Source: Alphaproteobacteria bacterium (GTDB lineage: Bacteria; Pseudomonadota; Alphaproteobacteria; RF32; CAG-239). Taken from it: DNA of 34,091 nucleotides. The stretch is from assembly GCA_017480995.1 (NCBI GenBank), contig JAFUQJ010000018.1:1-34091 (forward strand), read 5' to 3'. The position numbers and the translations under genes were made by a program. The notes under the pieces are model-generated. The model saw only the letters and a program-made list of their open reading frames with translations, made no database searches and had not been told where the DNA came from. Below, in pieces: positions 7,903 through 30,597 of the stretch (its first letter is position 1; each line of letters starts with the position of its first letter).

Positions 7903-7912
7903 GGGGAAATCT

Positions 7913-10900
7913 ATGATGAATAAAGTATTGAAAATTTGTTTGCTGAGCTTCCTCGTATCGGTCGTAACGGCGGTCTTTCAGACGGCCGAGGCATTCTTTT
8001 TCCCGCAGCTGGCGATTGATCCTTATCCGGTTTTCAAGCCGTCCGAAACCCTGATTACGGCCGGCAAAAGCACCGCGCATCTGGCGCATACGGCTCAAAA
8101 AACGATTAATACCACCGAGACCACGCTCAACAACGCCAAAACTGCGGTTATGGCCGCATACAGCGGCGAGCTGACCAGCCTGCTCGACGTCGGCGGCACC
8201 AACCCCGGCCAAAAAGAAATCGCCGACTGCAATTATCTCGGACACAAGTTCAAAATGACCAAGGCGGACGACGTGGCCGAGATTGCGCGTCTGCTGTTTC
8301 TGCAGTACCCCGTCAATCCCAAAAAAGACACGGTCGGCGCCCAAAAATACGACGCTTACCGCCAGAGCTTCTATCGCGACAGCCTGATGGAAATTTATAC
8401 GGCGGCTCTTGCTTTGGAAGGAGATTTGGAAACTTCGCTCAAACCGTCTGTTGAAGACAGCATCAAATGCATCAAAGGCGAGGGCACCAACTGCGGGATT
8501 CCTTCCCCCGACGGCAATAACGATTCGGCGTTTGTCGAGGGCAAGGCGCTGGAAGCGACGGCCAATCTCTATGAAATGCTCTTGAAAGTAACCGCTCTGA
8601 AGGCGCAGCTTGCCGCCGTCAAGGTTATCGGCACCGGCACGCCGGGCAGCTATACTGAAGGATACGAGGATACGCCTGTCGTTACCGAGGATTCTGCGTC
8701 GGAAAGCGCTTCCGAGACGCCGCAGCAGCAAAGCAGCCTGCTGCCTGCCGACGGCCGGGTATATGCCTCCGCGCATAAGGCCGCGGTTCAGAGCGTCGGC
8801 TTTGCTCAGGTCGGAATGTCCGGAACGGTTGCGACGTCTTTGTCCGATATCGAGGCGCAAAGCAAGCTCTCCGGCAGCGCTTCGCAGCAGATTGTCGACA
8901 ATACGCTGAGCTTTGTAATGGCGCCGGAAGACACCTCTTGGCACCCTTATACCGAAGCTGCCGACAAAATGGCCGAGCTCGACAAGATTGCGCCGATTTC
9001 CGAGCTGGCAGACGAGGCGATGGCCGTTCATAATCTGATTGTCAAGCTGCCGGAATACCGGAATGCCGCCGAAACCCTCAACGAGGTTAAGGAAGCGCAT
9101 AAACGCGCGTTGGATTCTCTCAAAGAGTCGGATCAGTGCGCGCTGAATTATCTCGGCCGGCGTTATTCCGGCCCGCAAACGCCCTGGGCCGGCCGCAGTC
9201 TCGGAAGCGAAGTGAACAATGCCGACATTCGCAAGGGGATTTCCGGCTGGGCTCTGGAAGCCTATGAGACGGCCAAAGCCGCGCAGACCGCCTCGGACGC
9301 CGGAGAAAACGCGGCCGTTCTTGACGTCGATTTTGATACGGTTGACTTGTCTGACATCAGCGACACCCAAAAGGGCAATCAGGTTATCAAAGCCGGCGGC
9401 GGCGAGAGCATCAGCAGCAACAAAAAGGAGCAGGGCGCCAAAGAAGCGCGGGAAACGGCCATGATTTCGTGGCAGATAGGTTCGGAAGCGGCGCATTTGC
9501 TGACGGACACGCCGGACAAATGGGGCGCCGTTTCCAAAAAAGAGCCGGTTTGGACCGACGTTAAGACTTTTTATAACCAGTATCTTCAGTTTAAATATGA
9601 CAATATCCGCAGTTATCTGAAATCTTATTCCAAAAACGATGTTTTGGCGGTGGTTGCCGAGCGTTTGAAAGGCGGCAAAGATGTGGAAATCAGCGACAAT
9701 AAAAAACAGCAGGCCGTTCAAAACGCCGTCGATACGTTGAGTCAGGAGCTTTCGGCCGTTTCCGCGCAGCAGGATGAAGAGCTCAAAAAACAGACCTCGG
9801 CCCACAGCGGCCAGCTGGCCGCTCTGCAAAAGCGCCGTCAGGATATTTTAAGCCGTATGGAAACGGTTGACGCCAAACAGAAAGAACTGTCCGACAAACT
9901 GGGCGACCTGCGCAACAAAGCGCAGGACGACGCCGTCAACGCCATGCAGGCGACGGTCACGCATAAAACGACTTTTCCGGTCGGGAGCTATACCGTTGCC
10001 GACGAAGGCGGAGCGGAGACGCGCGAGGTTGCTGACGCCGATTCCGACAGCCGCGTTTTCGAAAGCTCAACAGCGGCTAATAAGCAGGATTCCGAAATCG
10101 ACGAGGTTAAGCAGGAACTGGACAAGCAAAATTCCCGGTTGAGCTCGCTCGAAAACGAGCTTGCTTCGGTGGACAAGGAAATTGCGTCTTACCGTCTCGG
10201 CGCTCCGGCAAAAGTTACTTCGCTTTTGGAACGCATCAGGGCCGCCAAACTCCAAAAGAGCGATTCCGTAATGGATAAAATCAGCGAACTGGACGTTTCT
10301 TACAGCAAAGACGTCAAGACTGCGCTGCTGGACGTTATCGGCAAAAAAGCCTCCGCCAATCCGTTGATGACGCCGCTGATTATTTTCGAAAATGTCGACC
10401 GCGCCGCGGGAGAGGCTCTGGACGATTTGTATAGCAAGGTGGACGCGCGGATTGCTCTGGCGCAAAAGCAGTTCGAAAATCTCGGCGACGATTTGTACGA
10501 TGCCGCCAATCATGCCAAAGTGACGGAAATTCATCAGTCGATGATAAACGATATCAAGGCGATGTCGTTGACCGTTGCCGCCGCCGGAATTGAGACCGTG
10601 GACAATATCCGCCTCTATGCCAAGCTGGAAACCGCCGATACGACGGCCGAAGAGGAGGATTATTTTGTCGGTGCGACTGCCAAGGCGCGTGACTTAAAGG
10701 CGCCGAAGGCAATTTTTGAAATAAAGCTGCCGCCGCTGCGCGAAGCCGTCCATTTTGACGAAGTCGACTGGCAAAACGTTTCGCCTTATTCCGAGGGCGT
10801 AACCAAAAGCGGCGCGATAATCAAAGAGGACTTTTTGAACTACGGCGGAAAAATCCCCGAAATCTGGAAATATCTCCTCAAAGACAACGCCTTTGTCGAA

Positions 10901-11839
10901 AAATCGCTGGATCTCAAAGCCGCTCTCAATCAGGGCTGCGAGGCGGTGGCTTTGTACCGCGGCGGCGTTCTGCCCTGTAAAGTCAAAGATTCCGCGATTA
11001 TTCTGGATGTCGACGCCGAAGGAAAATATATCAAGGGAAGTGCCGGCGGAAATCTGAACGTCTGCGCCGGAATTGAAATGAAGTCGGGCCGTCCGCACCA
11101 TGTTCTGCGCGATGTCGACATTACTTTCCCGCTGTTTTTCGGAACGGAAAAAGCGGAAAAAACCGACTGTCCGTACAGCGAGCTCGGAACACTGCTCGAT
11201 GCCGACGAAAACGGCACGCTGTTTTTCCGTCAGGCCGCGTATAACGCTTTTTACGGAATTGTTCATGAGCAAAGACACACGGACAAGGAGTTGAGCGCCA
11301 AGGAAAACATGCTGCATGCGGTTTACGATCAGACGCCTCTTAATCGTAACCAGACCGGCGATTTTCTGGTCTTTTTCGAAAATGAACAGACGCAGCGCAA
11401 AAACCTTGAAGAAACGCAGAAAGACTATGACGAAATGATGCAGGAGTTTTTCGATGTTCTGAAAAGTCAGGGCTTTACGCCGAGCGCCGGTTTCGATTTG
11501 TCGAAAGAAAGCGATTACAACACCGCCCGCCAAAAGCTGGACGACATCAAAAACGGCAAGATTTCTCAGGCTTTGAGCGAACTCGGCGGAATTGACGTTG
11601 CCGACAACGCGGTTGTTCAGGAACGGGTGGACATCATCAAATCCATGATTGCCGCGTTGCAGAAAGACAGCGATGAGACGACGATTATTTCGGCCGGTGC
11701 GGATGAAGATAATCATCTTGACGAAGACATAAAAAGCTCTAAAGTAAATGAAGAAGTCGCGGACAGGTTTACCAAAAGTCTGGACAAGAATGCGGAAAAG
11801 GCCAAACAGGGGCTCAGTCCGTATTGTCCGAACTATTAA
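7913..11839 (+). CDS. Large exported coiled-coil/Cys-containing protein (~1308 aa)
   Basis: RBS AGGGGG at 7901-7906 before ATG 7913; signal peptide ending TAEA; coiled coils; several Cys pairs; ends SPYCPNY. Confidence 0.88.
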   Translation: MMNKVLKICLLSFLVSVVTAVFQTAEAFFFPQLAIDPYPVFKPSETLITAGKSTAHLAHTAQKTINTTETTLNNAKTAVMAAYSGELTSLLDVGGTNPGQKEIADCNYLGHKFKMTKADDVAEIARLLFLQYPVNPKKDTVGAQKYDAYRQSFYRDSLMEIYTAALALEGDLETSLKPSVEDSIKCIKGEGTNCGIPSPDGNNDSAFVEGKALEATANLYEMLLKVTALKAQLAAVKVIGTGTPGSYTEGYEDTPVVTEDSASESASETPQQQSSLLPADGRVYASAHKAAVQSVGFAQVGMSGTVATSLSDIEAQSKLSGSASQQIVDNTLSFVMAPEDTSWHPYTEAADKMAELDKIAPISELADEAMAVHNLIVKLPEYRNAAETLNEVKEAHKRALDSLKESDQCALNYLGRRYSGPQTPWAGRSLGSEVNNADIRKGISGWALEAYETAKAAQTASDAGENAAVLDVDFDTVDLSDISDTQKGNQVIKAGGGESISSNKKEQGAKEARETAMISWQIGSEAAHLLTDTPDKWGAVSKKEPVWTDVKTFYNQYLQFKYDNIRSYLKSYSKNDVLAVVAERLKGGKDVEISDNKKQQAVQNAVDTLSQELSAVSAQQDEELKKQTSAHSGQLAALQKRRQDILSRMETVDAKQKELSDKLGDLRNKAQDDAVNAMQATVTHKTTFPVGSYTVADEGGAETREVADADSDSRVFESSTAANKQDSEIDEVKQELDKQNSRLSSLENELASVDKEIASYRLGAPAKVTSLLERIRAAKLQKSDSVMDKISELDVSYSKDVKTALLDVIGKKASANPLMTPLIIFENVDRAAGEALDDLYSKVDARIALAQKQFENLGDDLYDAANHAKVTEIHQSMINDIKAMSLTVAAAGIETVDNIRLYAKLETADTTAEEEDYFVGATAKARDLKAPKAIFEIKLPPLREAVHFDEVDWQNVSPYSEGVTKSGAIIKEDFLNYGGKIPEIWKYLLKDNAFVEKSLDLKAALNQGCEAVALYRGGVLPCKVKDSAIILDVDAEGKYIKGSAGGNLNVCAGIEMKSGRPHHVLRDVDITFPLFFGTEKAEKTDCPYSELGTLLDADENGTLFFRQAAYNAFYGIVHEQRHTDKELSAKENMLHAVYDQTPLNRNQTGDFLVFFENEQTQRKNLEETQKDYDEMMQEFFDVLKSQGFTPSAGFDLSKESDYNTARQKLDDIKNGKISQALSELGGIDVADNAVVQERVDIIKSMIAALQKDSDETTIISAGADEDNHLDEDIKSSKVNEEVADRFTKSLDKNAEKAKQGLSPYCPNY

Positions 11840-11854: not shown

Positions 11855-12613
11855 ATGGTGCAAGGTCAAATACAAAACGGCAGACAGACGCTGGCAATCG
11901 AAGACGCCGCTGCCTCGTCGCCGGAGTTTATCGAAAAAATCGAGCGGGAGACGGAAGGCTTCAAGCTGTATTATTATCTGTGGCTTTCCCGGCTGTTTAT
12001 CGCGACGACGATTTTTTCGATGCTGTTTCTGATTGCTTCGGCGCTGGCTTTGTTCCGGCTGGCGCCGATGGTTTCCGTCGAGCCGTTTCTGATTATCCGG
12101 CAGGACGCTTCGGAAGGGATTGTCCGTGACGAGCCGATTGCCATGGACATGCCCTCGCGCGACAAGCTGCTCGAAACCTTTATCCGCCAGTATGTCATTA
12201 CCCGCAACACGGTTATCAACGATCCCAAGGAGATGCGTTCCCGCTGGATGGGCGGAGGGATGGTAAACTTTTTGTCTTCGCCCGAGGTGTTTGAGGAGTT
12301 TTCCAAAGACGTCCGCCGCCGCTGGGAAAACATGTTTAAGCAGGCGCTGGTGCGCGAGGTGGAGATTATTTCCGTCGTTCGCCAGGGCGGCGCGCGTTCC
12401 CCGGTCTGGAAAGTCGATTTTAAGACTTATGATTTATACGACGAGCAAAACCGCAATCAGGCCCAAAAAGAGGCGACGCTCCGCGTGCGTTACTGGACGG
12501 CTTCGGTAACGGCCGCTTTTATCCGCGAGCGCGTCTTTATGGGACGTCGCCTGATTAATCCGCTCGGCTTTACCGTCACGCGCTATTCTCAGACCGAGGT
12601 CGACATCTTCTAG
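11855..12613 (+). CDS. virB8: VirB8 family protein, copy 1
   Basis: Single TM, then VEPFLI, FIRQYVITR, MSS-like FLSSPEVFEEF, and the C-terminal INPLGFTVTRY signature. Confidence 0.9.
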   Translation: MVQGQIQNGRQTLAIEDAAASSPEFIEKIERETEGFKLYYYLWLSRLFIATTIFSMLFLIASALALFRLAPMVSVEPFLIIRQDASEGIVRDEPIAMDMPSRDKLLETFIRQYVITRNTVINDPKEMRSRWMGGGMVNFLSSPEVFEEFSKDVRRRWENMFKQALVREVEIISVVRQGGARSPVWKVDFKTYDLYDEQNRNQAQKEATLRVRYWTASVTAAFIRERVFMGRRLINPLGFTVTRYSQTEVDIF

Positions 12614-12928: not shown

Positions 12929-13657
12929 ATGGCGGAAAGAATTGAGGGGAACCCCGGCGGACGGAGATTAATCGGCAGCAGAGCGGCCGAAAATGCCGCG
13001 CTGAAGCAGTCTTCCGAGCTTTTTGTAGCCAATGTCGGCGAAAAAAGGTATCTGTGGACGGCGCGCGCTTTCGCCGTCATCACGGCGCTGAGCATTTGCT
13101 GCAATCTTGTCTTGATTTTGGCAATTTATCAGGTTTTGCCGCTGTACCGCGTCGAGCCTTTTCTGCTTACGTTCCAAAACCGCTCCGAACAGGTTTACAA
13201 TATTCAGCCGATCCGCGAGGGCATGCGCAACCAGAAGGCGATTACCGAAGTTTTTGTCCGTCAGTATGTGCTGATACGCAGTTCTTTCAGCCGCGATTTG
13301 GCCGAGATGGAAGCGCGCTGGATGCCCGGCGGCGCAATTCAGGAGATGTCGGCGCCGAATATCTATCAGGACTTTTTGAACAATACCGCCAAAAAGGCGC
13401 TCAGCGTTATCAGAACCCGCGGTTTGCAGCGCGAAGTCAAGATTCTTTCCGTCAACGAGCTGACCAACGGCATTTGGCAGGTGGAGTACGAAACCCGCGA
13501 CATGTATCCGGATTCAGCCAAGCCGGAAGTCAATTATTGGACGGCGTCGCTCAACGTCGGCTATCGCAGAAAAACGGTCAAATACGGCGATCGCCTCAAA
13601 AATCCGGTCGGCTTTACCGTCAACAGGTATTCTTTGACTTATAATAAAGTGGAGTAA
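12929..13657 (+). CDS. virB8: VirB8 family protein, copy 2
   Basis: Single TM, VEPFLL, FVRQYVLIR, KNPVGFTVNRY; clearly paralogous to 11855-12613. Confidence 0.9.
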   Translation: MAERIEGNPGGRRLIGSRAAENAALKQSSELFVANVGEKRYLWTARAFAVITALSICCNLVLILAIYQVLPLYRVEPFLLTFQNRSEQVYNIQPIREGMRNQKAITEVFVRQYVLIRSSFSRDLAEMEARWMPGGAIQEMSAPNIYQDFLNNTAKKALSVIRTRGLQREVKILSVNELTNGIWQVEYETRDMYPDSAKPEVNYWTASLNVGYRRKTVKYGDRLKNPVGFTVNRYSLTYNKVE

Positions 13658-13664
13658 TTCGAAA

Positions 13665-15332
13665 GTGGCTTTTATGACTAAAAAATCAGGTTTGCTTTTA
13701 TCTGCCGGGCTTTTGAGCTCCCTTTTGTGCTTCGGCTTTGCCGAGGCGCAGGTCAATCAGCAGGTGATGGACGCCAGCGCCGAGCAGGCTCAGGGGACGT
13801 ATACGCCGATGAATTTGGGCTATGCCGGGTTTAATTCGCTCGGCATGACGCAGGCGGCCTGGCTTGATCCGATGCAGAATTTGGGCGAAGGACAGAGCAA
13901 ACCTGCTTATTCGCGCTATTACTGGTCGCCCGATCTGGTCTTGCCGATCCGTGTGCGCGAAGGCATGATTACGCTGATTAATTTTCCTAATTGGGAAATG
14001 ATTGAAGATATTTTTATCGGTGACAACGCGACGTTTGACGGTCAGATTTCCGGGCCGAATTCGTTAATGCTGTATCCGCGCAAGGGCGCCAACGTCGGCG
14101 TCGACACCAACGTGATTGTCTTCGGCCGCTCCGGCAACCGCTATGTGTTCTACGTCAAGAGCGAAGCTGTCAATACCGAGCGTTTGACCAACTCGATTAT
14201 TGATATCGACGTCGTCGGCGGCAACGACGGTTCCGGCGGAACGCCGAACTATGGCAGCGGCGGCGTTTTGGGCGTTCATACCGGCGGCACCGTTTCCGGC
14301 GGCAAGTCGGTTGACGCCAACTATACCCGCAGCTTCCAGAAGAGCGACTGGCTCAAGTCGATTCCGCTTGATCCGTCCAAATTTCGTTTTGATTTGGAAG
14401 TCTATGTACCGAACCCCGACGACGTGGTGATTGCGCCCGAGCGCGTCTGGCGCGATGATATCTTTACGTATATCGACCTCGGCAAAAAGGCGCTGAACAT
14501 GATGCAGCGTCCGGTTGTCAGCATGATCGTCGAACGGGTTGAGGTTCCGGTCGGCTTCCGCACCAAGGGGCCCGACAACCGTTTGATTATTGTCGAGGGT
14601 GTCGGCGATTTGGTCTTGCGCAACGGCAAGCGCCTGATTTGCATCAAACTGCGTCGTTCGGACGCTTCCGGTCTTGAATACGCAATCGATTCTGCCGATT
14701 ATCTGCCTCCGACCTGGGAAGTTCCGGCCCCGCTGCCGGCGCAAAGCGGCGGCGGAGCGGCAGGACAGGGCGGCGTGCCTTATGGTGATGCCGCAGGGGC
14801 TGCCGCCGGTGCGGCTCAGGGAATGCCGGCCGGTTCGGTTCCCGGACAATATGATATTCAGGTCGGCCAGAGTCAGGTTATCGTTCCGCAGTACGGCGGC
14901 AATGCCGGGGGGCAGAACGTCGGCGTGGGGTATCAGCCCGGAACCGGCGCCGCCGCAAACTTTGATTATTCCAAGATGCAGCGGATCAGCAATACCAACG
15001 CCGGCAGCGGCGCGTCCGCCAATCCGTATTGGCAGCAGTACGGCTACGGTTCGGGCTTTGCCGACGGAGGCAACTCCAATATTTCGATTGAGCTCGGAAC
15101 CGATGCCGATGTCAGCAATCTTGAGGAGCTGTGGGGCAGGCTGTCCAAAAAGTATAAGGCGGACTTGGAGCGTTATGAGCCGTTCTTCTCGGTTGACGCG
15201 CCGGCCGACGGTCAGGGCAAGGAGCTGTTTCATCTGCGTGTCGGCCCTGTCAAAACGCTTGAAGAAGGGGACAAAACCTGCAGCATTCTGGGCCGCAACG
15301 GCGTCTTTTGCAGCGTAGTCAGGACACAGTGA
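13665..15332 (+). CDS. virB9: VirB9/TrbG family protein with C-terminal SPOR domain
   Basis: Signal peptide; GMITLINF, DTNVIV...RYVF, PERVWRDDIFTYIDL, LRNGKRLICI motifs. Gly-rich linker, then a SPOR-like domain (IELG...WGRL...HLRVGP...C...C). Confidence 0.9.
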   Translation: MAFMTKKSGLLLSAGLLSSLLCFGFAEAQVNQQVMDASAEQAQGTYTPMNLGYAGFNSLGMTQAAWLDPMQNLGEGQSKPAYSRYYWSPDLVLPIRVREGMITLINFPNWEMIEDIFIGDNATFDGQISGPNSLMLYPRKGANVGVDTNVIVFGRSGNRYVFYVKSEAVNTERLTNSIIDIDVVGGNDGSGGTPNYGSGGVLGVHTGGTVSGGKSVDANYTRSFQKSDWLKSIPLDPSKFRFDLEVYVPNPDDVVIAPERVWRDDIFTYIDLGKKALNMMQRPVVSMIVERVEVPVGFRTKGPDNRLIIVEGVGDLVLRNGKRLICIKLRRSDASGLEYAIDSADYLPPTWEVPAPLPAQSGGGAAGQGGVPYGDAAGAAAGAAQGMPAGSVPGQYDIQVGQSQVIVPQYGGNAGGQNVGVGYQPGTGAAANFDYSKMQRISNTNAGSGASANPYWQQYGYGSGFADGGNSNISIELGTDADVSNLEELWGRLSKKYKADLERYEPFFSVDAPADGQGKELFHLRVGPVKTLEEGDKTCSILGRNGVFCSVVRTQ

Positions 15333-15340: not shown

Positions 15341-18300
15341 ATGAGCAAAGATAACTTAACACATTCCGAGAAGTATATCAAAAAAACCAATCGCATTATT
15401 CTTGCGATTGGTATTACTTCTTTTTTGATATTTGTTTTCGGTGTGTTTTTGCTCATCAAAAGCAATCAGGTCGAAGATAATTTCGAAGAGCCGGTCTTTA
15501 CGGACAACGCCGACGTCTTGGGCGACGTCAGCGCGCCGGCGTTAACGCAGAACATTGAGTTTTCGACCATGGAGGGCGAGATTCCTCTGACCACCACGCC
15601 CGATCCGGTGCCGATGGGCGAGGTTGTGCTCGGAACCGATGCCAAAAACGTTCTGACGCTCGGTACCAACGGCAGGGCCGCCGTCAAAATCGTTTCGGTA
15701 GAGCTGGCAGATCCGCCGGCCGACGGTTTTTCTTTTCAGAGCGGCTGCGACGGCAAAACGCTGACCGGTAACGATACCTGCCATATTACCATGAGCTGGG
15801 CGCCCGTCATTGCCGGAAACGTGCAGAACAATTTTATTATCTCGTGGTATGAGCTTAATCTTGGCGAAAACAACGTCAAATCTGCCAAAGTTCCGGTCAG
15901 CGGCAATGCCGTTACCAAGGAAGACTGCAAGTTGTGCGAGAACGTTTCGGTTTCCGAGGCCGGCGGTGTGGCCGGTACGCCTAAAGCCGTCCGCTATGCA
16001 ATCGGACCGGACGGAAAAATTCTCGGTATTATTGACGAAGACGGCTATGTCCGCGATGCCAACGGCAATATCATCGGCCGTGTCGGCGCCGACGGCATGA
16101 TCCGCGATGCCGACGGCAATGTCATCGGCGTTGCCGAAAACCGTCGTGCCGTTTACGACGAATTCGGCAATCTCATCGGCTATGTCAATCCCGACGGTTC
16201 GGTGGTCGATTTGGACGGCAATGTCATCGGCCGCGTTCTGCCCGACGGCACGGTGGTCGATCTGAACGGCAAGGTTATCGGCCGCGCGGTCGAAACCGGC
16301 TTTGTTTATGATAAGGACGGCAATATTATCGGCCGCGTTTTGCCCGACGGCACGGTTGTGGATATGGACGGCAACGTTATCGGCAGGGTAATGCCCGACG
16401 GCACGGTGGTCGATTTGAACGGCAATGTCATCGGCAATATTACCAAGCCGGGACGCGTGGCGGTCGATGCCAACGGCAAGGTCTTGGGCGTCGTCATGCC
16501 CGACGGCAGCGTTGTCGATGCCAACGGCAATGTTATCGGATACGTTGACGAGAACGGCAACATCGTTTCCAAAAATTCGCCCCTGCAGGGCAAAAAACTG
16601 CGCGTTGCCTACGATGCCAACGGCAATATCATCGGCTATGTCGATGAAAACGGCAATCTGCTCGACATTAACGGCAACATCATCGGCAGAATGCGCGAAG
16701 ACGGCACGATTGTCGATTTGCAGGGCAACGTTATCGGCTATGTCGGCGAAGAAGTGCAGTTTGACGAGAACGGCAATATTATCGGCGCCGTGGTAAACCT
16801 GAGCAGGCTGCCGATTACGCCGCAGGGAACGCTGCTCGGAATTTTGCAAAACGACGGCAGCATCGAAAATTCGGCCAAACAGGTCGTAGGGCGGGCGCTT
16901 CCCAACGGTCTGGTTAAAGATCCCGGCGGTTCCAAAATCGTGGCCAAAATGGTCAACGGCGGCTTTGTCGTCGGTTTCGGCTGCAAACAGCTGGGATATC
17001 TGGACAAAGACGGCCTGATTAAGAAGGGTAACGAGGATACCAAACTGCGGATTACGCCCGAAGGCTCGGTGCTGGATGCCGAGGGGCGCTATGCCGGAGA
17101 AGTCTTGCGCCGCGGCCCCGTGTTTGACAATAAGTGCCGTTTTTTGGGAACGGTTGACAATACCGGAATTGTCAAAGACAACGATAACCGCTATGTCGGC
17201 TGCGTCAATCCCGACGGCAGCGTTTTGGACGAGAAAGGCGATTACGTCGGCCATGTTGCGAGCCGGGGCGCCGCTGTCGACTATGACGGCCGCTACCTCG
17301 GGCGGATAGACAATCAGAACCGCGTCGTCAACGATGCCGGGCTTCCGGTCGGCTGCGTCGGTTTCGGCGGCGACGTTTTTAACAACGAGGGCGTTTATAT
17401 CGGCCGTGTCGTCGGCAGAAAATATGCGTTTGATTTCAACGGCGACTATATCAACCCGGTTGACGACGACGCCAAGGTAAAGATTTACGGCAAGCCCTCG
17501 GCTTCGCTGTCTTCCAATAATCTGGTGCTGGACAACAACAATAAGATTATCGGCGTTGCTCTGGATGCCGAAACGGCGGTCGGCAACGCCCGCGGCAACG
17601 CTTTGGGAATGCTGTTCCCCGACGGCGGCATCTACAGCGCCAAAGGAATTTCTCAGGGAAAGGTCAAAAATGACGGCCTCGGTTTTTACGGTTCCGTTCT
17701 CGGCGCGGCTTTTCCGCGCGGCGAGGTGATTAATCTGCGCGGGGAGAATGTCGGCGTCGCTTATCAAAACGGCGAGGTCTTCAGCCGTTACGGCGATCGG
17801 CTCGGCTATGTCGACGGCCGCGGCAAGTATTTTAATCACAAAAACGAATATCAGGGCGCGATCGTCCGCCGGGGCGCCGCCATCGGGTATGACGGCTCGT
17901 ATCTCGGCTATGTCATTGCCGACGGTACCGTGGTTGACATCAACGGCAAAACTTCCGGCCGCGTTACGCATGACGAAAAAATCGCCGACGACAAAGGCCG
18001 CATTATCGGTGAGGTTATTCCCGAAAACGCGATTATTGACATTTGGGGGAATTATAAAGGCTTTTTGAACTCGCTCGGCGACGTCACCGATCTCAAGGGC
18101 GAAGTCGTTACCGCCATTTTGCCCGGCGGCGCGACCGACAACAATCTGAGCGTCGTCAAATCGGGCGTCGTTATCGATTTCGGCGGCAATCCGGTCGGCG
18201 TGGTCATGCCTGACGGTGCCGTTGCCGATAAGAATAATGTCGTCATCGGCCGGGCGCTGTCCGACGGAAATGTCGTCAGCGTTGCCGGAAAACTCATCGG

Positions 18301-18649
18301 CGAGGTGGTCGACGGCGACATCGTCATCGGCAATAACGATAAAGTTGTGGGTTATGTTCTTTTTGATGGCAAAATAATCGGTAAAGATGATAGTATTATC
18401 GGCAGGAGCCTCTCCGGCGGCCTGGCCATTGATCTGAAAGACGGTATTCTCGGCAAGATTTATAAGATCGGCGCTTCCGTTTTGGGCAATGACGGCGGCT
18501 ACAAGGGGCGGCTGGCGCATGACGGCAGCGTGATTGACGCCGACGGCAAAAATATCGGCTATGTCAAGAGCAACGGTTCGTTTATTGATTTGGACAAGAA
18601 AGTTGCCGGCTATGTGCTGCAAGAGGTTGCCAAAAACCGGAGGAATTAG
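15341..18649 (+). CDS. Membrane-anchored protein with Ig-like domain and ~50 17-aa beta repeats (DUF3659-like)
   Basis: N-terminal TM; ASH/choice-of-anchor-D-like Ig segment (GFSFQSGC...TCHITMSWAP); then (P)DGxVxDxxGxxIGxV repeats to the C-terminus. ATG 15341 lies just after the virB9 stop. Confidence 0.85.
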   Translation: MSKDNLTHSEKYIKKTNRIILAIGITSFLIFVFGVFLLIKSNQVEDNFEEPVFTDNADVLGDVSAPALTQNIEFSTMEGEIPLTTTPDPVPMGEVVLGTDAKNVLTLGTNGRAAVKIVSVELADPPADGFSFQSGCDGKTLTGNDTCHITMSWAPVIAGNVQNNFIISWYELNLGENNVKSAKVPVSGNAVTKEDCKLCENVSVSEAGGVAGTPKAVRYAIGPDGKILGIIDEDGYVRDANGNIIGRVGADGMIRDADGNVIGVAENRRAVYDEFGNLIGYVNPDGSVVDLDGNVIGRVLPDGTVVDLNGKVIGRAVETGFVYDKDGNIIGRVLPDGTVVDMDGNVIGRVMPDGTVVDLNGNVIGNITKPGRVAVDANGKVLGVVMPDGSVVDANGNVIGYVDENGNIVSKNSPLQGKKLRVAYDANGNIIGYVDENGNLLDINGNIIGRMREDGTIVDLQGNVIGYVGEEVQFDENGNIIGAVVNLSRLPITPQGTLLGILQNDGSIENSAKQVVGRALPNGLVKDPGGSKIVAKMVNGGFVVGFGCKQLGYLDKDGLIKKGNEDTKLRITPEGSVLDAEGRYAGEVLRRGPVFDNKCRFLGTVDNTGIVKDNDNRYVGCVNPDGSVLDEKGDYVGHVASRGAAVDYDGRYLGRIDNQNRVVNDAGLPVGCVGFGGDVFNNEGVYIGRVVGRKYAFDFNGDYINPVDDDAKVKIYGKPSASLSSNNLVLDNNNKIIGVALDAETAVGNARGNALGMLFPDGGIYSAKGISQGKVKNDGLGFYGSVLGAAFPRGEVINLRGENVGVAYQNGEVFSRYGDRLGYVDGRGKYFNHKNEYQGAIVRRGAAIGYDGSYLGYVIADGTVVDINGKTSGRVTHDEKIADDKGRIIGEVIPENAIIDIWGNYKGFLNSLGDVTDLKGEVVTAILPGGATDNNLSVVKSGVVIDFGGNPVGVVMPDGAVADKNNVVIGRALSDGNVVSVAGKLIGEVVDGDIVIGNNDKVVGYVLFDGKIIGKDDSIIGRSLSGGLAIDLKDGILGKIYKIGASVLGNDGGYKGRLAHDGSVIDADGKNIGYVKSNGSFIDLDKKVAGYVLQEVAKNRRN
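16005..16790 (+). repeat. Coding tandem repeat, ~51-nt/17-aa unit
   Basis: Near-identical units such as cccgacggcacggtggtcgat..gaacggcaa.gt.atcggc (PDGTVVDLNGNVIGRV). Confidence 0.9.
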
Positions 18650-18652: not shown

Positions 18653-21600
18653 GTGACCTGGAAGACAAGACTGAAAACGATTTTCAAAACGGCGCGCTGC
18701 GTTATGCTGGCGCAGCTTTTGACGGTCGGTCTGTCTGCGGTGCAGGCGCAGGAAATCACGGCCATTAACTTTGACGGCGAAGTCTTGGGCAAAGTTATTC
18801 CCGACGGCAAGGTTGTCGGCGCCGACAACAAACTTATCGGCAACGTGACCGCCGACAGTTTGATTGTCAGTTTTGACGGCAAATTAATCGGCGGCGTTAT
18901 TCCGCAGGGCGTGGCCATCGGCAGTGACGCGCGTCCGCTCGGCAAAGTAAATAACGACGGTTCCGTCCGTTCCGCTTCGGGACAGGTGCTGGGACGCGTT
19001 TTGCCCAATGGCCTGGTGGTGGACGATTTCTTTAACATTGTCGGCGCGGTTGTCTTCCCGGGGCTGGTTTATTCCGACGAGGGGGCGACGGTCGGCCGCA
19101 TTACCGGCGACGGCCTGTATACCAACCTTCAGGGCCAGCAGATCGGCGTTGTCACGCCGGACGGCTATGCGTACCGCAGGGTAGGCAACGATTATCTGCT
19201 CGAAGGCCGGCTGATTTCTTCCAAAATGGTGGTTTCCCTGCAAGGGGAGTTTATCGGCAGCGTTTCTCCGGGCGGCCAGGTTTCCGACTTTAATTCTCAG
19301 ATAATCGGCAAAATCAAAGCCAACGGTTTTGTTTATGACGACGAAGACCGGATCGTCGGCAAAATCGTCAAAACCGGCTATGCTTTTGACAACAGCGGAT
19401 ATTATCTCGGTTTCGTCAGCTACAACGGCGAAGTCGTTGACGGCGGCAATACGGTCGGACGGCTGCGCGCCGACGGAAAAATTGCCGACCTGACCGGCAA
19501 AATCATCGGTTACAGCATTGATTTCGCGGCGGCCGCGACTGATCTGAAAGGCAAATATATCGGCCGTGTCCTGCCCGACGGAAATTTGGCGCGCGCCAAA
19601 ACAATCAGTGCTCTGGTCGGTGCCCGCGGCGTCGTTTTCGGAGCTGACGGCGGCACCATGGGACAGCTTGCGGCAACCGGCCCTGTTTTTGACTATAAAG
19701 GGGCGTTGCGCGGCCATGCTTTGCCCGGCGGCAGCGTAATTTCGCTCAACGGCACGCCGCTCGGATACGTTGTCGGCTCGGCGGCTTATGATTTGTCCGG
19801 CCGCATGCTGGGACGCGTCAGCCGCGGCAAAATGGTTTTCTCGACGGCCGGCGACGTTCTGGGCGTCAGCGGCATCGGCAGCCGCATGACGGCGGACTCC
19901 AAGCAGCTGTTGGTTTCTCCGCTGGGTTATGTCTTCAATCAGGACGGCGATTTCTCCGGCGAAGCGCGGACGATTGCGCCGCTGTATAATCCTGCCGGCG
20001 CCAATGTTTCGATGATCGGGCTCAACGGCCGCGCCGTCAACGAACGCGGGCTGGATGAGGGCTATGTGACCGGCGGCGGCTATTTGATAAACCAGCAAAA
20101 CAAACTGACGGCCAAGGCCATAGACGATTTTTATGCCGTTTCCAAAGAGGCGAAGTCTTTGGGCAGTCTCAATGCCGACAATCTGATTTTGGATACTTCG
20201 CTGCGCATTATTGCCAAAATTCTGCCCGACAATTCGGTGGTCGAAACCGACCGTTCGGTCAGCAACAATTATCAGCCCAAAACCGGTCAGGCCTATGCCG
20301 AAGACATTGCTGTCGATTTTACCGGAAATTTTGTCGGTTACACGGACATTCTCGGCAACGTCAATAATCTTTCCGGCGCCAAGGTGGGGCATGTGGCCGA
20401 GCGCGGTCTGGTCATTGACAACAACGGCATCGTCAACGGTTTTGTGGTTCCGTATCGCGCCATGCTGAACGAAAGCTGCGAGGTAATCGGCGTCGTCACC
20501 CCGCGCGGCGATGTTCAGAATTTCCGCGGTGTTTATCTCGGCAGGGTTTTGGCCAACGGTCAGGTTCTGAGCGACAGCGGCAGTATTCTGGGCTTCTTGG
20601 CGCCGTCTGCGCCGGTTGTCGGTACTGACGGCAGTGTTTCCGGGGTGGTCGGCGCCGACGGCAAGGTTCTCGATATGGAAAAGAACAGCCTCGGCTGCAT
20701 CAGCCGGAGCGGCCTGCTGCGCAATGCCGACGGTTTGGTTATCGGCGGCGCGCTCAAATCGGGCGCGGCCATGGCTTTCAACGGCGACGTTCTCGGATAT
20801 TCGTCAATTGACGGCGGCATTGTCGGCGCCAATAATCAGATTGTCGGCTATCAGCAGCCCGACGGCAACGTCAATTCCTCTGCCGGCATTCCGGTCGGCG
20901 CCATGATGGAATACAAAGTGGCCTTTAATTTGGACAACCGTTTTATGGGCCGCGTTCTGTCTGACGGAACCGTTGTTGGCGACAAGTTCAAGAATGTCGG
21001 CCGCGTCAATTTTGAAGGATACGTCGTTTCCGGCGGCCAAAAAGTCGGCTATGCCTTGTATGATTTTTACGTCTACGACGCAAACGACAACGCAATCGGC
21101 TATATCAACCGCAACGGCGATGTCGTCAGCTTTATCAACCAGAGCCTGGGGCGGGTTGAACGCGGTTTCCTGCTGGACAAAGAGCAGAATGTCATCGGCC
21201 GTGGCAATCGCGATTACAACATCCGCGAAAAAACGCAGCTGGTTATCGGTCGTCTTTTGTTTAACGGCGATGTAGCCGATGCCGCCGGCAATATTGTCGG
21301 CAAGCTGGCCAAGGCCGGAGAGATAAAGGACAAAAACGAACAGACGATTGCCCAGGCCTCGCCGTTGCAGTATTACAGCAAGATTACCGCGCAGCCCAAG
21401 CGCAAAATGGTCTTTGACAAAGACGGCAACTTTATCGGTTATCTTGACGAGAACGGCAATGTGGTCGATGCCGACGGCAATATCATCGGCACCCTTGACA
21501 AAGACGGCAATGTGGTCGACAAGGACGGCAACATTATCGGCAGCAACGCCAAAGGCAAGGCTGTTTATGACAAGGACGGCAATGTTATCGGTCATTTGGA

Positions 21601-23200
21601 TGAAGACGGCAACGTCGTTGACGCCAACGGCAAAATCATCGGCAAAGTGGCGGAAAACGGCGATGTTGTTGATGCCAACGGCAATGTCATCGGCGGTATC
21701 GGCAGCAACTGGTACGAGAAAGCGCCGGCCCGCAGCGAGCCCGCCGCCAAAGACGAGGACGTCAGTCCGGCTCTCAAACTTCTGGAAAGCAAGCAGTATC
21801 GCAAATCATTGGGTATAGCTCTGACGCCGGACGGCGAATATCTGGGCGATATTCTGGAAGACAAAACGGTCATTGATGCCGACGGCAATTATCTCGGACG
21901 CTTAATGCCCGACGGTCTGGTTATTGACGACGACGGTACTTTAATCGGTGTTGAGGAGGTCAAAAAGCCCGATACCTCCGGAATGTTTGTGCCTGCCGGA
22001 ACGTTCGGCGACGGCGGCGCCTACGGAACCGGAACGGGGCCTGCCGGCAATCTCGGTCCCGGCGGCGGCTACGGTCCCGGCGAACGTTATGATCCGGCGC
22101 GTCAGGCCGCTCTGAATGCGGCCATGGCCGAACGCCGCAAAAACATTACCGTCGGCAAAATCAGCAACGGCATGCGGAAAGAAGCCTTTGACGGTATGCA
22201 GAAAGACTGGGAAGAGCAGGGTATCGGCAAGGTAATTTCATCCTGGCGGGTTGACCTGAGCGAAATGATTTTTGCCGACAAACCGATTCCGGCGGTAATT
22301 GCCCGTCCGATTGACAGCAACAATCCGGCGCCGATTACCGCGTTTGTCGAACGCAATGTCTATGCCGAAGAAGGGCGCAACGTCATCATTCCGGCCGGCA
22401 GCCGTCTGATGGGAACGCTGGGCGGCCTGACCGCCAGCGCGGAAGCGACTTCGGAATCCGCCCGCGTACAGATTTCCTGGGAACGCCTGATCCGTCCCGA
22501 CGGCTCGCTGTTTGTCTTCCAGGGCCTGACTGCCGATGCTCAGGGCCGTGCCGGCGCGCTGGGTTACGTCGATCAGCAGCTGTTCAAAAAATACACTTTG
22601 CCGGTCTTGACAACCAGTTTAACCAGTGCCACATCATACTTTATGGCGCCGAGCGACAACGAATCCGACAATGAAACGCCGCGTCAGCAGGCGGCCAACG
22701 ACGCGCGGCAGAACTTCCTGAACGAAATGAGCAATATTTTTGACGAAATTCTGGCCGACAAGTCAAGCATCAAACCGATGACTTATATTCCGGCCGGTAC
22801 GCGTATTATCGTCTTTCCCAATACCGATCTGTGGTTAAGAACGCTTGAGCGTGATCAGGATTCTTCTCTCCAGCTCGAAAAACCGCAAGTCTTTATTGAC
22901 GATGGCGAAAAAGCTGCCGAAAAGGCCAAATTTGATGCCGAAAGCACCAAAAAGACGGTCAGCACGGCCGGTGCCGGCGGCGATGTCGTTTATGATGCCA
23001 GCGCCGATGTCGAGAGTGCCAAAGCGCCGGCGCCGTTGGTCAGCTCGCCCAAGCAGAATAAACCGGCCGGCGCGGTTCCGGGCTATATTGCTCCGCCGCC
23101 TCCGCCGTCCTCCTCCTCGGGAACGACGGCATCAACGCCGCAGACCGGTACGGGCAGCGGAACGTCGTCGTCTAATAACAGTGTCCCGGCATTGTTTTAG
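18653..23200 (+). CDS. virB10: Giant VirB10/TrbI protein with N-terminal 17-aa repeat array
   Basis: TrbI domain at ~22265-22835 (IPAVI..PIDS, VERNVY, IIPAGSRLMG, ISWERLIRPDG, DAQGRAG..GYVD, IPAGTRIIVF..DL). Signal peptide AVQA-QE; ~1070 aa of repeats; Pro/Ser tail. Confidence 0.93.
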   Translation: MTWKTRLKTIFKTARCVMLAQLLTVGLSAVQAQEITAINFDGEVLGKVIPDGKVVGADNKLIGNVTADSLIVSFDGKLIGGVIPQGVAIGSDARPLGKVNNDGSVRSASGQVLGRVLPNGLVVDDFFNIVGAVVFPGLVYSDEGATVGRITGDGLYTNLQGQQIGVVTPDGYAYRRVGNDYLLEGRLISSKMVVSLQGEFIGSVSPGGQVSDFNSQIIGKIKANGFVYDDEDRIVGKIVKTGYAFDNSGYYLGFVSYNGEVVDGGNTVGRLRADGKIADLTGKIIGYSIDFAAAATDLKGKYIGRVLPDGNLARAKTISALVGARGVVFGADGGTMGQLAATGPVFDYKGALRGHALPGGSVISLNGTPLGYVVGSAAYDLSGRMLGRVSRGKMVFSTAGDVLGVSGIGSRMTADSKQLLVSPLGYVFNQDGDFSGEARTIAPLYNPAGANVSMIGLNGRAVNERGLDEGYVTGGGYLINQQNKLTAKAIDDFYAVSKEAKSLGSLNADNLILDTSLRIIAKILPDNSVVETDRSVSNNYQPKTGQAYAEDIAVDFTGNFVGYTDILGNVNNLSGAKVGHVAERGLVIDNNGIVNGFVVPYRAMLNESCEVIGVVTPRGDVQNFRGVYLGRVLANGQVLSDSGSILGFLAPSAPVVGTDGSVSGVVGADGKVLDMEKNSLGCISRSGLLRNADGLVIGGALKSGAAMAFNGDVLGYSSIDGGIVGANNQIVGYQQPDGNVNSSAGIPVGAMMEYKVAFNLDNRFMGRVLSDGTVVGDKFKNVGRVNFEGYVVSGGQKVGYALYDFYVYDANDNAIGYINRNGDVVSFINQSLGRVERGFLLDKEQNVIGRGNRDYNIREKTQLVIGRLLFNGDVADAAGNIVGKLAKAGEIKDKNEQTIAQASPLQYYSKITAQPKRKMVFDKDGNFIGYLDENGNVVDADGNIIGTLDKDGNVVDKDGNIIGSNAKGKAVYDKDGNVIGHLDEDGNVVDANGKIIGKVAENGDVVDANGNVIGGIGSNWYEKAPARSEPAAKDEDVSPALKLLESKQYRKSLGIALTPDGEYLGDILEDKTVIDADGNYLGRLMPDGLVIDDDGTLIGVEEVKKPDTSGMFVPAGTFGDGGAYGTGTGPAGNLGPGGGYGPGERYDPARQAALNAAMAERRKNITVGKISNGMRKEAFDGMQKDWEEQGIGKVISSWRVDLSEMIFADKPIPAVIARPIDSNNPAPITAFVERNVYAEEGRNVIIPAGSRLMGTLGGLTASAEATSESARVQISWERLIRPDGSLFVFQGLTADAQGRAGALGYVDQQLFKKYTLPVLTTSLTSATSYFMAPSDNESDNETPRQQAANDARQNFLNEMSNIFDEILADKSSIKPMTYIPAGTRIIVFPNTDLWLRTLERDQDSSLQLEKPQVFIDDGEKAAEKAKFDAESTKKTVSTAGAGGDVVYDASADVESAKAPAPLVSSPKQNKPAGAVPGYIAPPPPPSSSSGTTASTPQTGTGSGTSSSNNSVPALF
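21410..21705 (+). repeat. Coding tandem repeat, 17-aa unit, most regular block in virB10
   Basis: DKDGNFIGYLDENGNVVDADGNIIGTLDKDGNVVDKDGNIIG..., with gacggcaa/aacggcaa recurring in the DNA. Confidence 0.85.
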
Positions 23201-23214: not shown

Positions 23215-24183
23215 ATGAGTTTTACGGTGTTAGAGTCGATTTTAAGACCTTTGTCTTATTGGTATACTCAGGACAATATCGAAGAAGTGGCGGTCAACCG
23301 CTCCGGTCAGGTATGGCTGCGTCTGCGCGGCAAACGGGCCTATCCGTGGGTGATGTATAAGGATGAGAAGCTGACCAAAGAATATCTGACCGATTTGCTG
23401 TATATTATCGCCAATACCTATGAACTTCCCTTTGATCCGGTGCAGGGCAACCCGGTCGTTTATGCCGCAATTCCCGGCGAGCACCGTTTTTCGGCAATCT
23501 GCGGCCGCAACGTCATGTATGATAATGACGATTTGACCGGCGGTATTGCGCTGACCATCCGCGTCCATTCCGATGACGTTGCTTTCGGGCTGGGAGATTA
23601 CGGCCTTACTCAGGGGCAGAAGCTGCACAAAATTAATCCGCTCAAAGATATCAAAGAACCGGAAGATCCCTACGAACGCCTGCTCCTGAGCATCAAACGC
23701 GGCGATCATATTCTGGTTTCGGGCGCAACCGCAACCGGTAAGACGACTTTCTTAAACAACCTGCTCAAAATTTTGGACATCAACAAACGCATTCTGACAA
23801 TCGAAGATACGCGCGAGCTGGTCGTGCCGCATCCGAACCGTGTGCATATCGTCTTGTCTCGTACCGAGCAGACCAATGCCCTGACTTATGCCAAAGTTAT
23901 CGATTTGGTGGTTCGTTTTACGCCCGATGCGATTATCGGCGGCGAGATATCGACCGGAAACGCCGGCGCCATTTGGGAGCTGATGGGCTCTGGTCACGAC
24001 AACTGTCTGGCCACCATTCACGCCGAAAGCTCGGAAGCGGCGTATCAGGCTTTTACCGATCGTATTTTGCATACCTATCCGACGATCGACCGCAAAAAAA
24101 CCATTGAGGAAATGCACCAGAAGCTGCGCGTTGTCCAAATCAACCGTGACGGCAACCTGCGCGCCGTCACCGAAGTCACTTAG
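23215..24183 (+). CDS. virB11: VirB11 family secretion ATPase
   Basis: EEVAVN, Walker A GATATGKT, Asp box TIEDTREL, PDAIIGGEI, His box SGH..LATIHA; RBS AAGGAG. Confidence 0.95.
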   Translation: MSFTVLESILRPLSYWYTQDNIEEVAVNRSGQVWLRLRGKRAYPWVMYKDEKLTKEYLTDLLYIIANTYELPFDPVQGNPVVYAAIPGEHRFSAICGRNVMYDNDDLTGGIALTIRVHSDDVAFGLGDYGLTQGQKLHKINPLKDIKEPEDPYERLLLSIKRGDHILVSGATATGKTTFLNNLLKILDINKRILTIEDTRELVVPHPNRVHIVLSRTEQTNALTYAKVIDLVVRFTPDAIIGGEISTGNAGAIWELMGSGHDNCLATIHAESSEAAYQAFTDRILHTYPTIDRKKTIEEMHQKLRVVQINRDGNLRAVTEVT

Positions 24184-24211: not shown

Positions 24212-24244
24212 AACGTTCCGCCGCCGTTACAGCGGCGGAATGTT
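24212..24244. terminator. Hairpin at the junction of the convergent blocks, possible terminator
   Basis: AACGTTCCGCCGC-7 nt-GCGGCGGAATGTT, a 13-bp stem with one G:U pair. No classical U-tract, and it overlaps the stop codon at 24227. Confidence 0.35.
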
Positions 24245-25006
24245 AAACTGCGCGATGTCTCCGGGACGAATCTTGGTATTGGAATAGCGCATGTTTCCGG
24301 TTTCGATGACAAATCGCTGCCGTCCGGTAAGTTGCGCGGCAAGATCATAGAAGTCGCGCGCCGGCATTTCCTGCCGCTGCGGATTCATCAAATACAAAAT
24401 GCAGCCCTGCGTTCGCTCGGCCACGCCGCAGCGCGCTCTGCCTTTGGGAACTTCCGGGTTGACAACCACGCCCTGCAAACCGTTGCGCACGACTTTTTCT
24501 TCCGAGAAAAGAACTTTGGAGGTAATAATTCCCACAAAAAACAGCAGGGCGCCGAGCATGATTAAAATCTTTTTGGTCAGGTACGGCGGAATGTCTGACG
24601 CCGGTACAAAAGGCTCATTGGTTTCTTCGACAATGTCGTCATCCGGCTGCTGCGCGGGCAAATCCTCTTCTCCCAAAAAACGCCGCGGCGCATTGCTGCC
24701 CGAAAGCGGAGCGCTCTTGGCCGGAAGCGTCTCTTCGTCCAGATAGGCGTCCAGATTAAAGGCATCGTCGTTATTGCCGCCTTTGGAAATAAAAGGATTG
24801 CTGAAACCCGGATTTTTGGGCGCCGCGAAGGGATCCGCCGGTTTGCCGCCGGCTGCGGCCGGATTGGCGTTGTTTCCCGTTTGCCCGCCGCCGGCCGGAG
24901 CCGAACCCATTGGTCGCTGCGGCATGCGGTTAATCGGTCTCTTAACCTTTTTGAGCATCGGTCGCTGCTGCGTATTTTGATTGGAGCTGTTGTTATCCGT
25001 TTCCAT
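24227..25006 (-). CDS. Bitopic membrane protein with disordered N-terminus and LysM-like C-terminus
   Basis: Pro/Gly/acidic N-region, one TM (ILIMLGALLFFVGII), Cys pair, ends ..IETGN..KIRPGDIAQFNIP. ATG 25006 is preferred to TTG 25012. Confidence 0.75.
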   Translation of the reverse strand: METDNNSSNQNTQQRPMLKKVKRPINRMPQRPMGSAPAGGGQTGNNANPAAAGGKPADPFAAPKNPGFSNPFISKGGNNDDAFNLDAYLDEETLPAKSAPLSGSNAPRRFLGEEDLPAQQPDDDIVEETNEPFVPASDIPPYLTKKILIMLGALLFFVGIITSKVLFSEEKVVRNGLQGVVVNPEVPKGRARCGVAERTQGCILYLMNPQRQEMPARDFYDLAAQLTGRQRFVIETGNMRYSNTKIRPGDIAQFNIPPL

Positions 25007-25024
25007 CTTCAAAACCTTTGCCGT

Positions 25025-26281: not shown

Positions 26282-26811
26282 TGCTTTGTTCCTTGAGGCG
26301 TCGGCGCAGGCCTCTGCGGCGCGGGAGCCGCGGCGGGCTGGTTTTCCGATTTATGCAGGAGCTTCTCGACCACCTGGTCCATCGACATGCCGGCGCCGAC
26401 CGTCGGATCGACGGATTTGTCCTGCGCGCCGAGCGCTTCTTTAAACTTTTTGAGTTCGTCTTTGTCTTGTTTAATCATGTCGGGAGAAGCGTTGTTTTGC
26501 AGTTCGGTCTTAAATTCTGACAGGTTTTTTTTGAGCGCGTTGATGCCGCCGGCCATTTTCTTTTCGACATACGGATAAAGCTGCTGATGAGACAGGATAT
26601 ATTCGCCGGTTTCGCTGATTTCTTCAAGCAGGTCGAGAATATAGCCGTAATGCTCGTATTCCTCCATGGCAATATTGCCCTTGCGCACGCACCGGGCGGC
26701 CACGCGCGAAATCGTTCTGTCATAATAGTCTTTCAACAAAATATAGTTGTCGACATACCACAAGTCGTCATTTCGTCCTTTGCCGCTGCTGAAAGAATTA
26801 CTCTGTTCCAT
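26278..26811 (-). CDS. Hypothetical cytoplasmic helical protein
   Basis: RBS GAGGAG before ATG 26811; ATGA overlap with the secretin-like gene. Confidence 0.75.
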   Translation of the reverse strand: MEQSNSFSSGKGRNDDLWYVDNYILLKDYYDRTISRVAARCVRKGNIAMEEYEHYGYILDLLEEISETGEYILSHQQLYPYVEKKMAGGINALKKNLSEFKTELQNNASPDMIKQDKDELKKFKEALGAQDKSVDPTVGAGMSMDQVVEKLLHKSENQPAAAPAPQRPAPTPQGTKQ

Positions 26812-30553: not shown

Positions 30554-30597
30554 CTGAGAATTCCTCACAACAATATGATACCAATATCTGCTGATAA

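Follow-up and report, generated by a model that had tools for sequence, protein, structure and literature searches.

A large extra gene between virB9 and virB10 as the probable anchored half of a split VirB10 in alphaproteobacteria of guts and rumens

We analysed a stretch of 34,091 nucleotides (nt) from an alphaproteobacterium (contig JAFUQJ010000018.1 of assembly GCA_017480995.1, contig C50 in our numbering; hereafter the window), which carries a type IV secretion system (T4SS) locus in a 1.49-Mb genome that is 84% complete. Between virB9 and virB10 this locus holds an extra gene of 1102 codons, here called X or virB10-N, and we find it probable that X encodes the membrane-anchored N-terminal half of a split VirB10 and that the two halves dock in the periplasm. 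The C-terminal half, with the TrbI domain, would be the product of the following gene, here called virB10-C (product VirB10-C). VirB10 is described as the sole T4SS subunit that bridges the inner- and outer-membrane complexes and as a coordinator of the machine (PMC12857230).

Results and Discussion

One-piece relatives of X

Judged by homology, X corresponds to the front half of the VirB10 that sister lineages produce as one chain, because single proteins of these lineages carry the X N-terminus, the repeats and the TrbI domain. A HMMER scan with X residues 1-224 against 1.84 billion representative proteins gave 565 matches, 150 of them listed. Most matches are unrelated proteins with many immunoglobulin-like (Ig) repeats; among the matches listed, however, at least ten proteins of 1498-2363 amino acids (aa) align from their own residue 1, carry the repeats and end in TrbI (P0051, P0072, P0077, P0081, P0086, P0105, P0111, P0123, P0126 and P0166). 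One such one-piece cluster has 141 members on many contigs. Of 401 genomes drawn from the class, 20 contained the X N-terminus, and the DNA around 15 such places was examined. Eleven loci (L104-L114) from six other families (f4, f20, f25, f40, f79 and f108) show the order virB8-virB9-[N-terminus + repeats + TrbI]-virB11, with the bracketed part as one single frame between virB9 and virB11. For the representative proteins and the loci alike, the N-terminal alignment to X has E-values from 1e-14 to 2e-33, and curated Pfam finds Bflower_2 together with TrbI in all four one-piece proteins scanned out of the 11. These frames measure 1280-2838 aa, compared with 188-672 aa for ordinary TrbI frames of the class (21 further matches in a draw of 61 genomes, from which one genome flagged as unpublished was left out).

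The one-piece giant VirB10s thus share with the X/VirB10-C pair the N-terminal motif, the transmembrane helix, the Ig domain, Bflower_2, TrbI and the gene neighbours. They differ in being one frame without an internal signal peptide, and no colinear alignment of their arrays with those of the split pair could be obtained. The sequence-only reading of the window had recommended a search for natural fusions, and at least ten representative proteins and 11 genomic loci answer that description. Its statement that no canonical VirB subunit looks like X needs correcting, as X is homologous to VirB10's own front half in the sister lineages. By itself X gives no TrbI match in Pfam and NCBIfam scans and hence lacks the domain that defines the VirB10/TrbI family (PF03743, NF038091), which X and the next gene together possess. 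Conversely, the short cytoplasmic N-terminus and single transmembrane helix typical of VirB10 are found in X and are missing from the TrbI-bearing gene.

Anatomy of X

Residues of X are numbered from the ATG at 15341. Sequence comparison indicates that this is the true start, because all 50 orthologues compared have M1 and, in several loci, a stop codon immediately precedes the start (the frames open at the start of the match in L016-L019). The frame is open as far as the TAG at 18647-18649 and is divided as follows.

15341..18649, forward strand: X (virB10-N), 1102 aa plus stop, probable inner-membrane-anchored N-terminal half of a split VirB10
15341..15394, forward strand: putative cytoplasmic tail, residues 1-18, with the motif S-E-x-Y-[IV]-K-K-[ST]-N-R common to one-piece VirB10s
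15395..15457, forward strand: single predicted transmembrane helix, residues 19-39, from hydropathy and the AlphaFold2 helix
15587..15913, forward strand: ASH/PapD-like Ig domain, residues 83-191, from the modelled beta-sandwich and Foldseek; C136 and C147 invariant
15986..16810, forward strand: canonical 17-aa beta-hairpin repeats, residues 216-490, the only zone of X where orthologues gain repeats
16811..18646, forward strand: fixed-length module of degenerate repeats, residues 491-1102, with C548, C599, C621 and C672 invariant and a predicted local distance difference test score (pLDDT) of about 90; the docking face is predicted in its C-terminal part

Residues 1-25 show 80% mean identity over 51 sequences, T7, S9, E10, Y12, K15, T16 and N17 of the tail are invariant, and the tail motif recurs at the N-termini of 10 one-piece proteins. 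By analogy with the N-terminus of VirB10 (PMC12857230), the tail is likely to contact the cytoplasmic ATPases. The helix is the sole run above 1.6 in a Kyte-Doolittle scan, with a maximal 19-residue mean (KD19) of 2.79 at residues 19-37; AlphaFold2 models a helix at 10-40, and residues 40-79 form a disordered linker. The Ig domain falls below the cut-offs of the sequence profiles ASH (PF15780, 17 bits, cut-off 27) and choice-of-anchor D (PF22544, 26.5 bits, cut-off 45), and so does a one-piece relative. Its model matches the solved ASH/PapD-like structures 2e6j, 6fvi, 4lk4 and 7ptb with a Foldseek probability of 1.00, and the template modelling score on the target is 0.61-0.63 for 2e6j and 6fvi. 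Atlas neighbours carry PF22544 (scores 0.80-0.81) and serve as leads only. Besides the invariant C136 and C147, C196 and C199 show at least 90% conservation, and the four cysteines of the fixed module are likewise invariant (50 sequences).

The repeats match PF21785 (Bflower_2) in eight stretches (E 5e-65, 216.8 bits, cut-off 38) and PF21784 with 89.2 bits (cut-off 25), both of the beta-flower clan CL0395. Their dominant period is 17 aa, and the repeat motif is counted 37 times, compared with a mean of 16 and a maximum of 25 in shuffled sequences. The model of X (pLDDT 81, predicted template modelling score 0.70) contains 98 strands over residues 216-1092, which amounts to 49 hairpins. The sequence-only reading had listed a transmembrane anchor, an Ig-like domain at about 15585-15910, a cysteine pair and about 50 VirB10-type repeats without a TrbI domain, and all of these features are present.

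Two other identities for X were considered and rejected. X scores above cut-off against YD-repeat profiles (TIGR01643, 53.3 bits, cut-off 15.8; PF05593, 52.3 bits, cut-off 22), far more weakly than against the beta-flower families, and the PDB matches listed for its model include no solved beta-flower, the best being Rhs and teneurin chains. That likeness is confined to local hairpins, with template modelling scores of 0.07-0.10 and a root-mean-square deviation of about 30 Å, and no Rhs core or C-terminal toxin domain was found in the Pfam and NCBIfam scans. A surface adhesin disagrees with the uncleaved-type 21-aa transmembrane helix, the VirB10-homologous N-terminus and the place of X in the periplasmic part of the chain.

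VirB10-C and the gene junction

VirB10-C carries the repeat family of X (E 8.5e-63), with about 55 hairpins compared with about 49 in X, and the two are the only genes of the 1.49-Mb genome that match the beta-flower family. The only TrbI match of the genome lies in VirB10-C as well (genome search E 9.3e-37). The features of this gene and of its junction with X are the following.

18639..18643, forward strand: Shine-Dalgarno sequence GGAGG for virB10-C, inside the last codons of X (TAG 18647-18649, GTG 18653)
18653-23200, forward strand: VirB10 (virB10-C), 1515 aa, Bflower_2 repeats and TrbI
18653..18748, forward strand: presequence, residues 1-32, with a basic n-region, a short h-region and VQA before Q33; read as a putative cleavable Sec signal peptide
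18749..21376, forward strand: fixed-length repeat module, mature residues 1-876, the first ~260 residues being the predicted docking face
21377..21997, forward strand: variable zone, mature residues about 877-1083, canonical repeats and then the start of the pre-TrbI linker
22268..22837, forward strand: TrbI/VirB10 C-terminal domain (PF03743, E 3.6e-35)

A Kyte-Doolittle scan of the window's VirB10-C found no segment of transmembrane grade. Over 74 loci, the distance from the X stop to the conserved mature N-terminus of VirB10-C is only 72-108 nt, leaving a presequence of 24-36 aa. This presequence is itself unconserved, and conservation begins sharply at the first mature residue; position -1 is A in 70 and S in 4 of the 74 loci, while position -3 is A, V, S or T in 72. 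This pattern is characteristic of cleavable Sec signal peptides, and we take the presequence to be probably removed. The proposal that X supplies the anchor which VirB10 appeared to lack is supported by both observations, the missing transmembrane-grade segment and the AxA-type presequence of the 74 loci. The post-TrbI tail of VirB10-C (22838-23200, ~120 aa) ends in a Pro/Ser/Thr-rich stretch; its last 8 residues are 80% conserved and the stretch before them 35-50% (34 sequences).

The presequence could instead be an uncleaved signal anchor, in which case VirB10-C would be bitopic and X an extra paralogue that arose by partial duplication of the virB10 front. The moderate hydrophobicity of the presequence speaks for this, with a median KD19 of 1.67 and values of at least 1.6 in 46 of the 74 loci. 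We nevertheless consider an uncleaved anchor very unlikely: A or S stands at -1 in every locus, the conservation starts exactly at +1, the presequence of at most 24-36 aa has no cytoplasmic motif of the kind common to X and the one-piece forms, and the transmembrane helix of X scores far higher (median KD19 2.87 over the 74 loci).

In the window, X and VirB10-C lie in the same frame, one TAG and one codon apart, with 3 nt between the X stop and the GTG of virB10-C. This arrangement would suit the production of a single protein by stop-codon read-through or frameshifting, and also a split that is a pseudogene or an artefact of sequencing or assembly. The comparison across loci makes these explanations extremely improbable. 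The two genes share a frame in just 17 of the 74 loci, below the chance expectation of one third, for which reason read-through was rejected. The stop codons of X are mixed (TAA 40, TAG 23, TGA 11), both genes are intact in the 261 of 283 genomes that have the split, and a Shine-Dalgarno sequence and start codon are conserved at the junction: in 72 of the 74 loci the final 25 nt of X contain a Shine-Dalgarno-like word, which is GGAGG in 55.

Distribution of the two-gene form

The order virB9-X-virB10-virB11 was found in 74 of the 80 fetched loci of the window's group, the other six ending before TrbI, and in none of the 80 do X and TrbI stand in one frame. The expected co-occurrence of X with a repeat-bearing VirB10 is therefore borne out as far as the assemblies allow. 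The X N-terminus is present in 261 of the 283 genomes of the window's order, in 212 of the 219 high-quality ones and in 23 of the 24 genera. Of five near-complete genomes without an X match that were checked, three are also without TrbI, and a contig end interrupts the locus in the remaining two. The window's family and the families f2 and f109 have the split form. It is also present in f57, where X reaches the end of its contig and the TrbI frame, of 1349 aa, is on a different one. Genomes of the order with the locus measure 1.2-2 Mb and belong to uncultured bacteria. Because nearly all genomes of the group carry the locus, the machine is probably central to the life of these widespread gut and rumen bacteria.

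Origin of the split

A tree built from the joined VirB9, VirB11 and TrbI segments of 29 loci parts the split from the one-piece forms by one branch, with a Shimodaira-Hasegawa-like approximate likelihood ratio test (SH-aLRT) value of 99. The split has a single origin. For rooting, a first draw of five small genomes of the class gave no TrbI; of six outgroup loci then fetched, two were usable, one of them a virB8-9-10-11 locus with a 672-aa VirB10 frame and a strong transmembrane segment. When these two canonical systems root the tree, the split forms group together as one clade (SH-aLRT 100) that sits inside the one-piece forms. The same direction, from one piece to split, is suggested by canonical VirB10, a single chain anchored at its N-terminus.

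No position in the one-piece proteins could be matched to the split point by motif search, by BLAST with the last 150 aa of X and the first 200 aa of VirB10-C, by hidden Markov models of the end profiles, or by sliding windows over the whole arrays or the fixed modules. The repeats match in every register and show no colinearity with the one-piece arrays. The X array and the VirB10-C array align colinearly, with 26% identity over 987 columns.

Length changes and docking of the two halves

In 26 longer X orthologues of up to 2446 aa, all insertions of at least 15 aa fall at X 196-222 or 395-490, and none was found in X 491-1102. In 35 length variants of VirB10-C, all insertions and deletions of at least 15 aa fall at mature residues 877-1083, except for one at 1466 in the C-terminal tail, and none was found in mature residues 1-876. 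Length changes are thus confined to the membrane-proximal repeat zones, and fixed-length modules flank the split. Identity peaks at the X tail (80%), at the last 27 aa of X (89-97%) and at the first 50 mature aa of VirB10-C (81-84%), compared with means of 66% for X and 64% for VirB10-C. Between species, X ranges from ~1070 to 2446 aa (for example L084 10001-17338; L116, G063:C6), the growth being all in one hot zone of canonical repeats; in the genus g19, X has 2205-2412 aa.

A complex model of X 833-1102 with VirB10-C mature residues 1-290, built with their own alignments (50 and 46 rows), supports binding of the X C-terminus to the mature N-terminus of VirB10-C. The interface score ipSAE is 0.84, 0.84 and 0.82 over the runs, while the best of three controls reached 0.00. 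Of 80 solved complexes, 58 passed the mark used, as did 2 of 110 mismatched pairs; these counts are rough here since own alignments were used. The runs give ~236 contacts, at least 86% of them in common, with a partner pLDDT of at least 83. In the model, the interface residues of X lie in patches between 850 and 1102, and its last residues 1093-1102 contact the first hairpins of VirB10-C (16-18, 33, 37 and 50). The sequence-only reading had expected the two proteins to dock repeat to repeat; the model favours this, and the support for it is that of the model.

Several points, to which the hydrophobic presequences discussed above belong, weigh against a split VirB10 with docked halves. Both chains are paralogous repeat arrays whereas the controls were unrelated proteins, so that any two such arrays might stack, and the tool carries the caveat that near relatives of a true partner reach the docking mark as well. 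The conservation of the last ~6 residues of X can be explained in part by the ribosome-binding site of virB10-C in those codons. The root of the tree is provisional, as it rests on two long-branch outgroups. Finally, because the two arrays align colinearly and the split point is not mappable, the sequences do not distinguish simple fission from tandem duplication with complementary loss.

An alternative is that the two halves no longer bind, X being an independent periplasmic scaffold anchored in the inner membrane and comparable to a DotF-like accessory protein, and VirB10-C a component of the outer-membrane core only, with no continuous bridge. The controls of the complex model, all unrelated proteins, would allow this, and so would the lengths: the repeats of X align along the entire VirB10-C array, and the pair as a proposed chain (2585 aa; more than 3600 aa in g19) is longer than most one-piece forms, which could reflect duplication and separate careers. 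We regard this alternative as unlikely in view of the clear difference between the pair and its controls, the constant length of the modules flanking the split while other zones vary, the position of the best-conserved parts of the arrays at the facing ends, and the genes themselves, which are always adjacent and coupled.

Proposed mechanism and comparison with known systems

On the reading of X as the anchored half of a split VirB10, events may have run as follows. An ancestral VirB10 of small-genome alphaproteobacteria would have gained two additions between its anchor and the TrbI barrel, an Ig domain and a beta-hairpin array of great length, and in the ancestor of the window's clade this giant virB10 would have become two adjacent, translationally coupled genes. 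X would retain the tail, the transmembrane helix, the Ig domain and ~49 hairpins and remain in the inner membrane. VirB10-C would have acquired a Sec signal peptide, so that it is exported and the signal peptide removed; its ~1000 aa of hairpins would lead to TrbI, which would join VirB9 at the outer membrane. Docking side by side of the fixed modules (X 491-1102 and VirB10-C mature 1-876) would then rebuild a non-covalent bridge from the inner to the outer membrane. The variable canonical repeats near each membrane may act as length-adjustable tethers, and translational coupling may keep the two halves in step. A further step is more doubtful: about 14 copies of the ~100-hairpin pair, two polypeptides held by a large fixed hairpin interface, might form a new periplasmic superstructure whose variable ends set its span and whose non-covalent joint is crossed by signals.

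Canonical VirB10/TrbI proteins (A. tumefaciens VirB10, R388 TrwE, pKM101 TraF) occupy the same place between virB9 and virB11 and consist of a tail, a single transmembrane segment, a periplasmic linker and the TrbI barrel. Unlike them, the system described here has two genes, an Ig domain and ~2000 aa of beta-hairpin repeats in place of the linker, and a TrbI half with a signal-peptide-like presequence. CagY of Helicobacter pylori resembles the one-piece and split forms in being described, in the abstract of PMC2581425, as an oversized VirB10 homologue with large internal repeats; according to this abstract, the CagY repeats are alpha-helical modules in one large protein, whereas here they are beta-hairpins and the protein is split. 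Functionally nearest as a two-protein arrangement are DotG, a VirB10 homologue, and DotF, a second core protein that spans the envelope, of Legionella; the comparison with DotF is one of function, and X is the front of VirB10 itself. DotG retains its own N-terminal anchor. Both Legionella proteins are found in the outer-membrane core complex (PMC12857230). Our literature searches returned neither a split VirB10 nor one that carries beta-flower repeats, and the words "split" and "fission" are absent from a 2025 review of T4SS diversity and nomenclature (PMC12857230).

The beta-flower fold was named by Durairaj et al. 2023, with the families PF21784, PF21785 and PF21786 (PMC10584680). The hairpins of X carry the tip motif [DNEQ]xxG that passages of this paper describe. 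The family was described from small beta-flowers of ~96 residues, some of them lipoproteins, compared with ~49 plus ~55 tandem hairpins here, and the same passages mention no link to a T4SS. Beta-flower hairpins characteristically close into shallow barrels of 4-, 5- or 6-fold type. The periplasmic spacer of a secretion machine would be the first defined cellular context found for this fold. A natural split of VirB10 throughout a clade, beside one-piece relatives, also offers a ready-made test of the importance of the covalent link and of the surfaces that make the connection. If the bridge does consist of two polypeptides, energy and contact signals between the cytoplasmic ATPases and the outer-membrane gate must cross a non-covalent joint.

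Gene neighbourhood

The remaining T4SS genes with recognisable families on the forward strand of the window are listed below.

31-2514, forward strand: VirB4, part of the virB-type locus
11855-12613, forward strand: VirB8 paralogue 1 (PF04335, E 4.7e-16)
12929-13657, forward strand: VirB8 paralogue 2 (PF04335, E 4.4e-24)
13665..15332, forward strand: virB9, CagX-type, 555 aa (Pfam CagX, E 8.5e-12; TIGR02781 VirB9, E 5e-8), directly upstream of X
23215..24183, forward strand: virB11, T2SSE ATPase (PF00437, E 3.6e-22), the next gene downstream of virB10-C

The tandem VirB8 pair is also present in the loci of the one-piece relatives. The virB9 product contains an insert of ~100 aa, a low-complexity stretch rich in Gly, Ala and Gln, and its C-terminus gives a weak, below-cut-off match to the peptidoglycan-binding SPOR type (E 0.0011, 19.7 bits, cut-off 21); a VirB9 tethered to the cell wall would suit a very large periplasmic assembly. 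Within the locus, forward-strand open reading frames (ORFs) of 330, 201, 175, 452 and 1318 aa at 3320-11839 have no Pfam or NCBIfam family. On the reverse strand at 24227-29459, ORFs of 261, 418 and 859 aa have no Pfam or NCBIfam match, and one of 183 aa has no match in the Pfam scan made of it. The NCBIfam scan covered 10 ORFs of the window, seven of which gave no match and three only coiled-coil or TrbJ-like matches far below cut-off. These include weak coiled-coil matches of the ORF at 4891-6030 (379 aa) and a weak TrbJ-like match at 2597-3208 (E 1.4e-4). The gene for a VirB6/TrbL-like protein of 882 aa (30696-33344, reverse strand, E 3.5e-9) runs divergently to the main operon, and a gene for a protein with two HTH_3 domains adjoins it (29582-30607, reverse strand). 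Two genes for VirD4-type coupling proteins (PF02534) lie outside the window, at G000:C72:17135-18739 and G000:C29:1495-3060. The related records are alphaproteobacterial genomes assembled from gut and rumen metagenomes, among them "Proteobacteria bacterium CAG:495" and "Candidatus Scatocola faecigallinarum". The record of locus L087 is titled "Lachnospiraceae bacterium" although its locus is alphaproteobacterial, probably a binning or labelling error.

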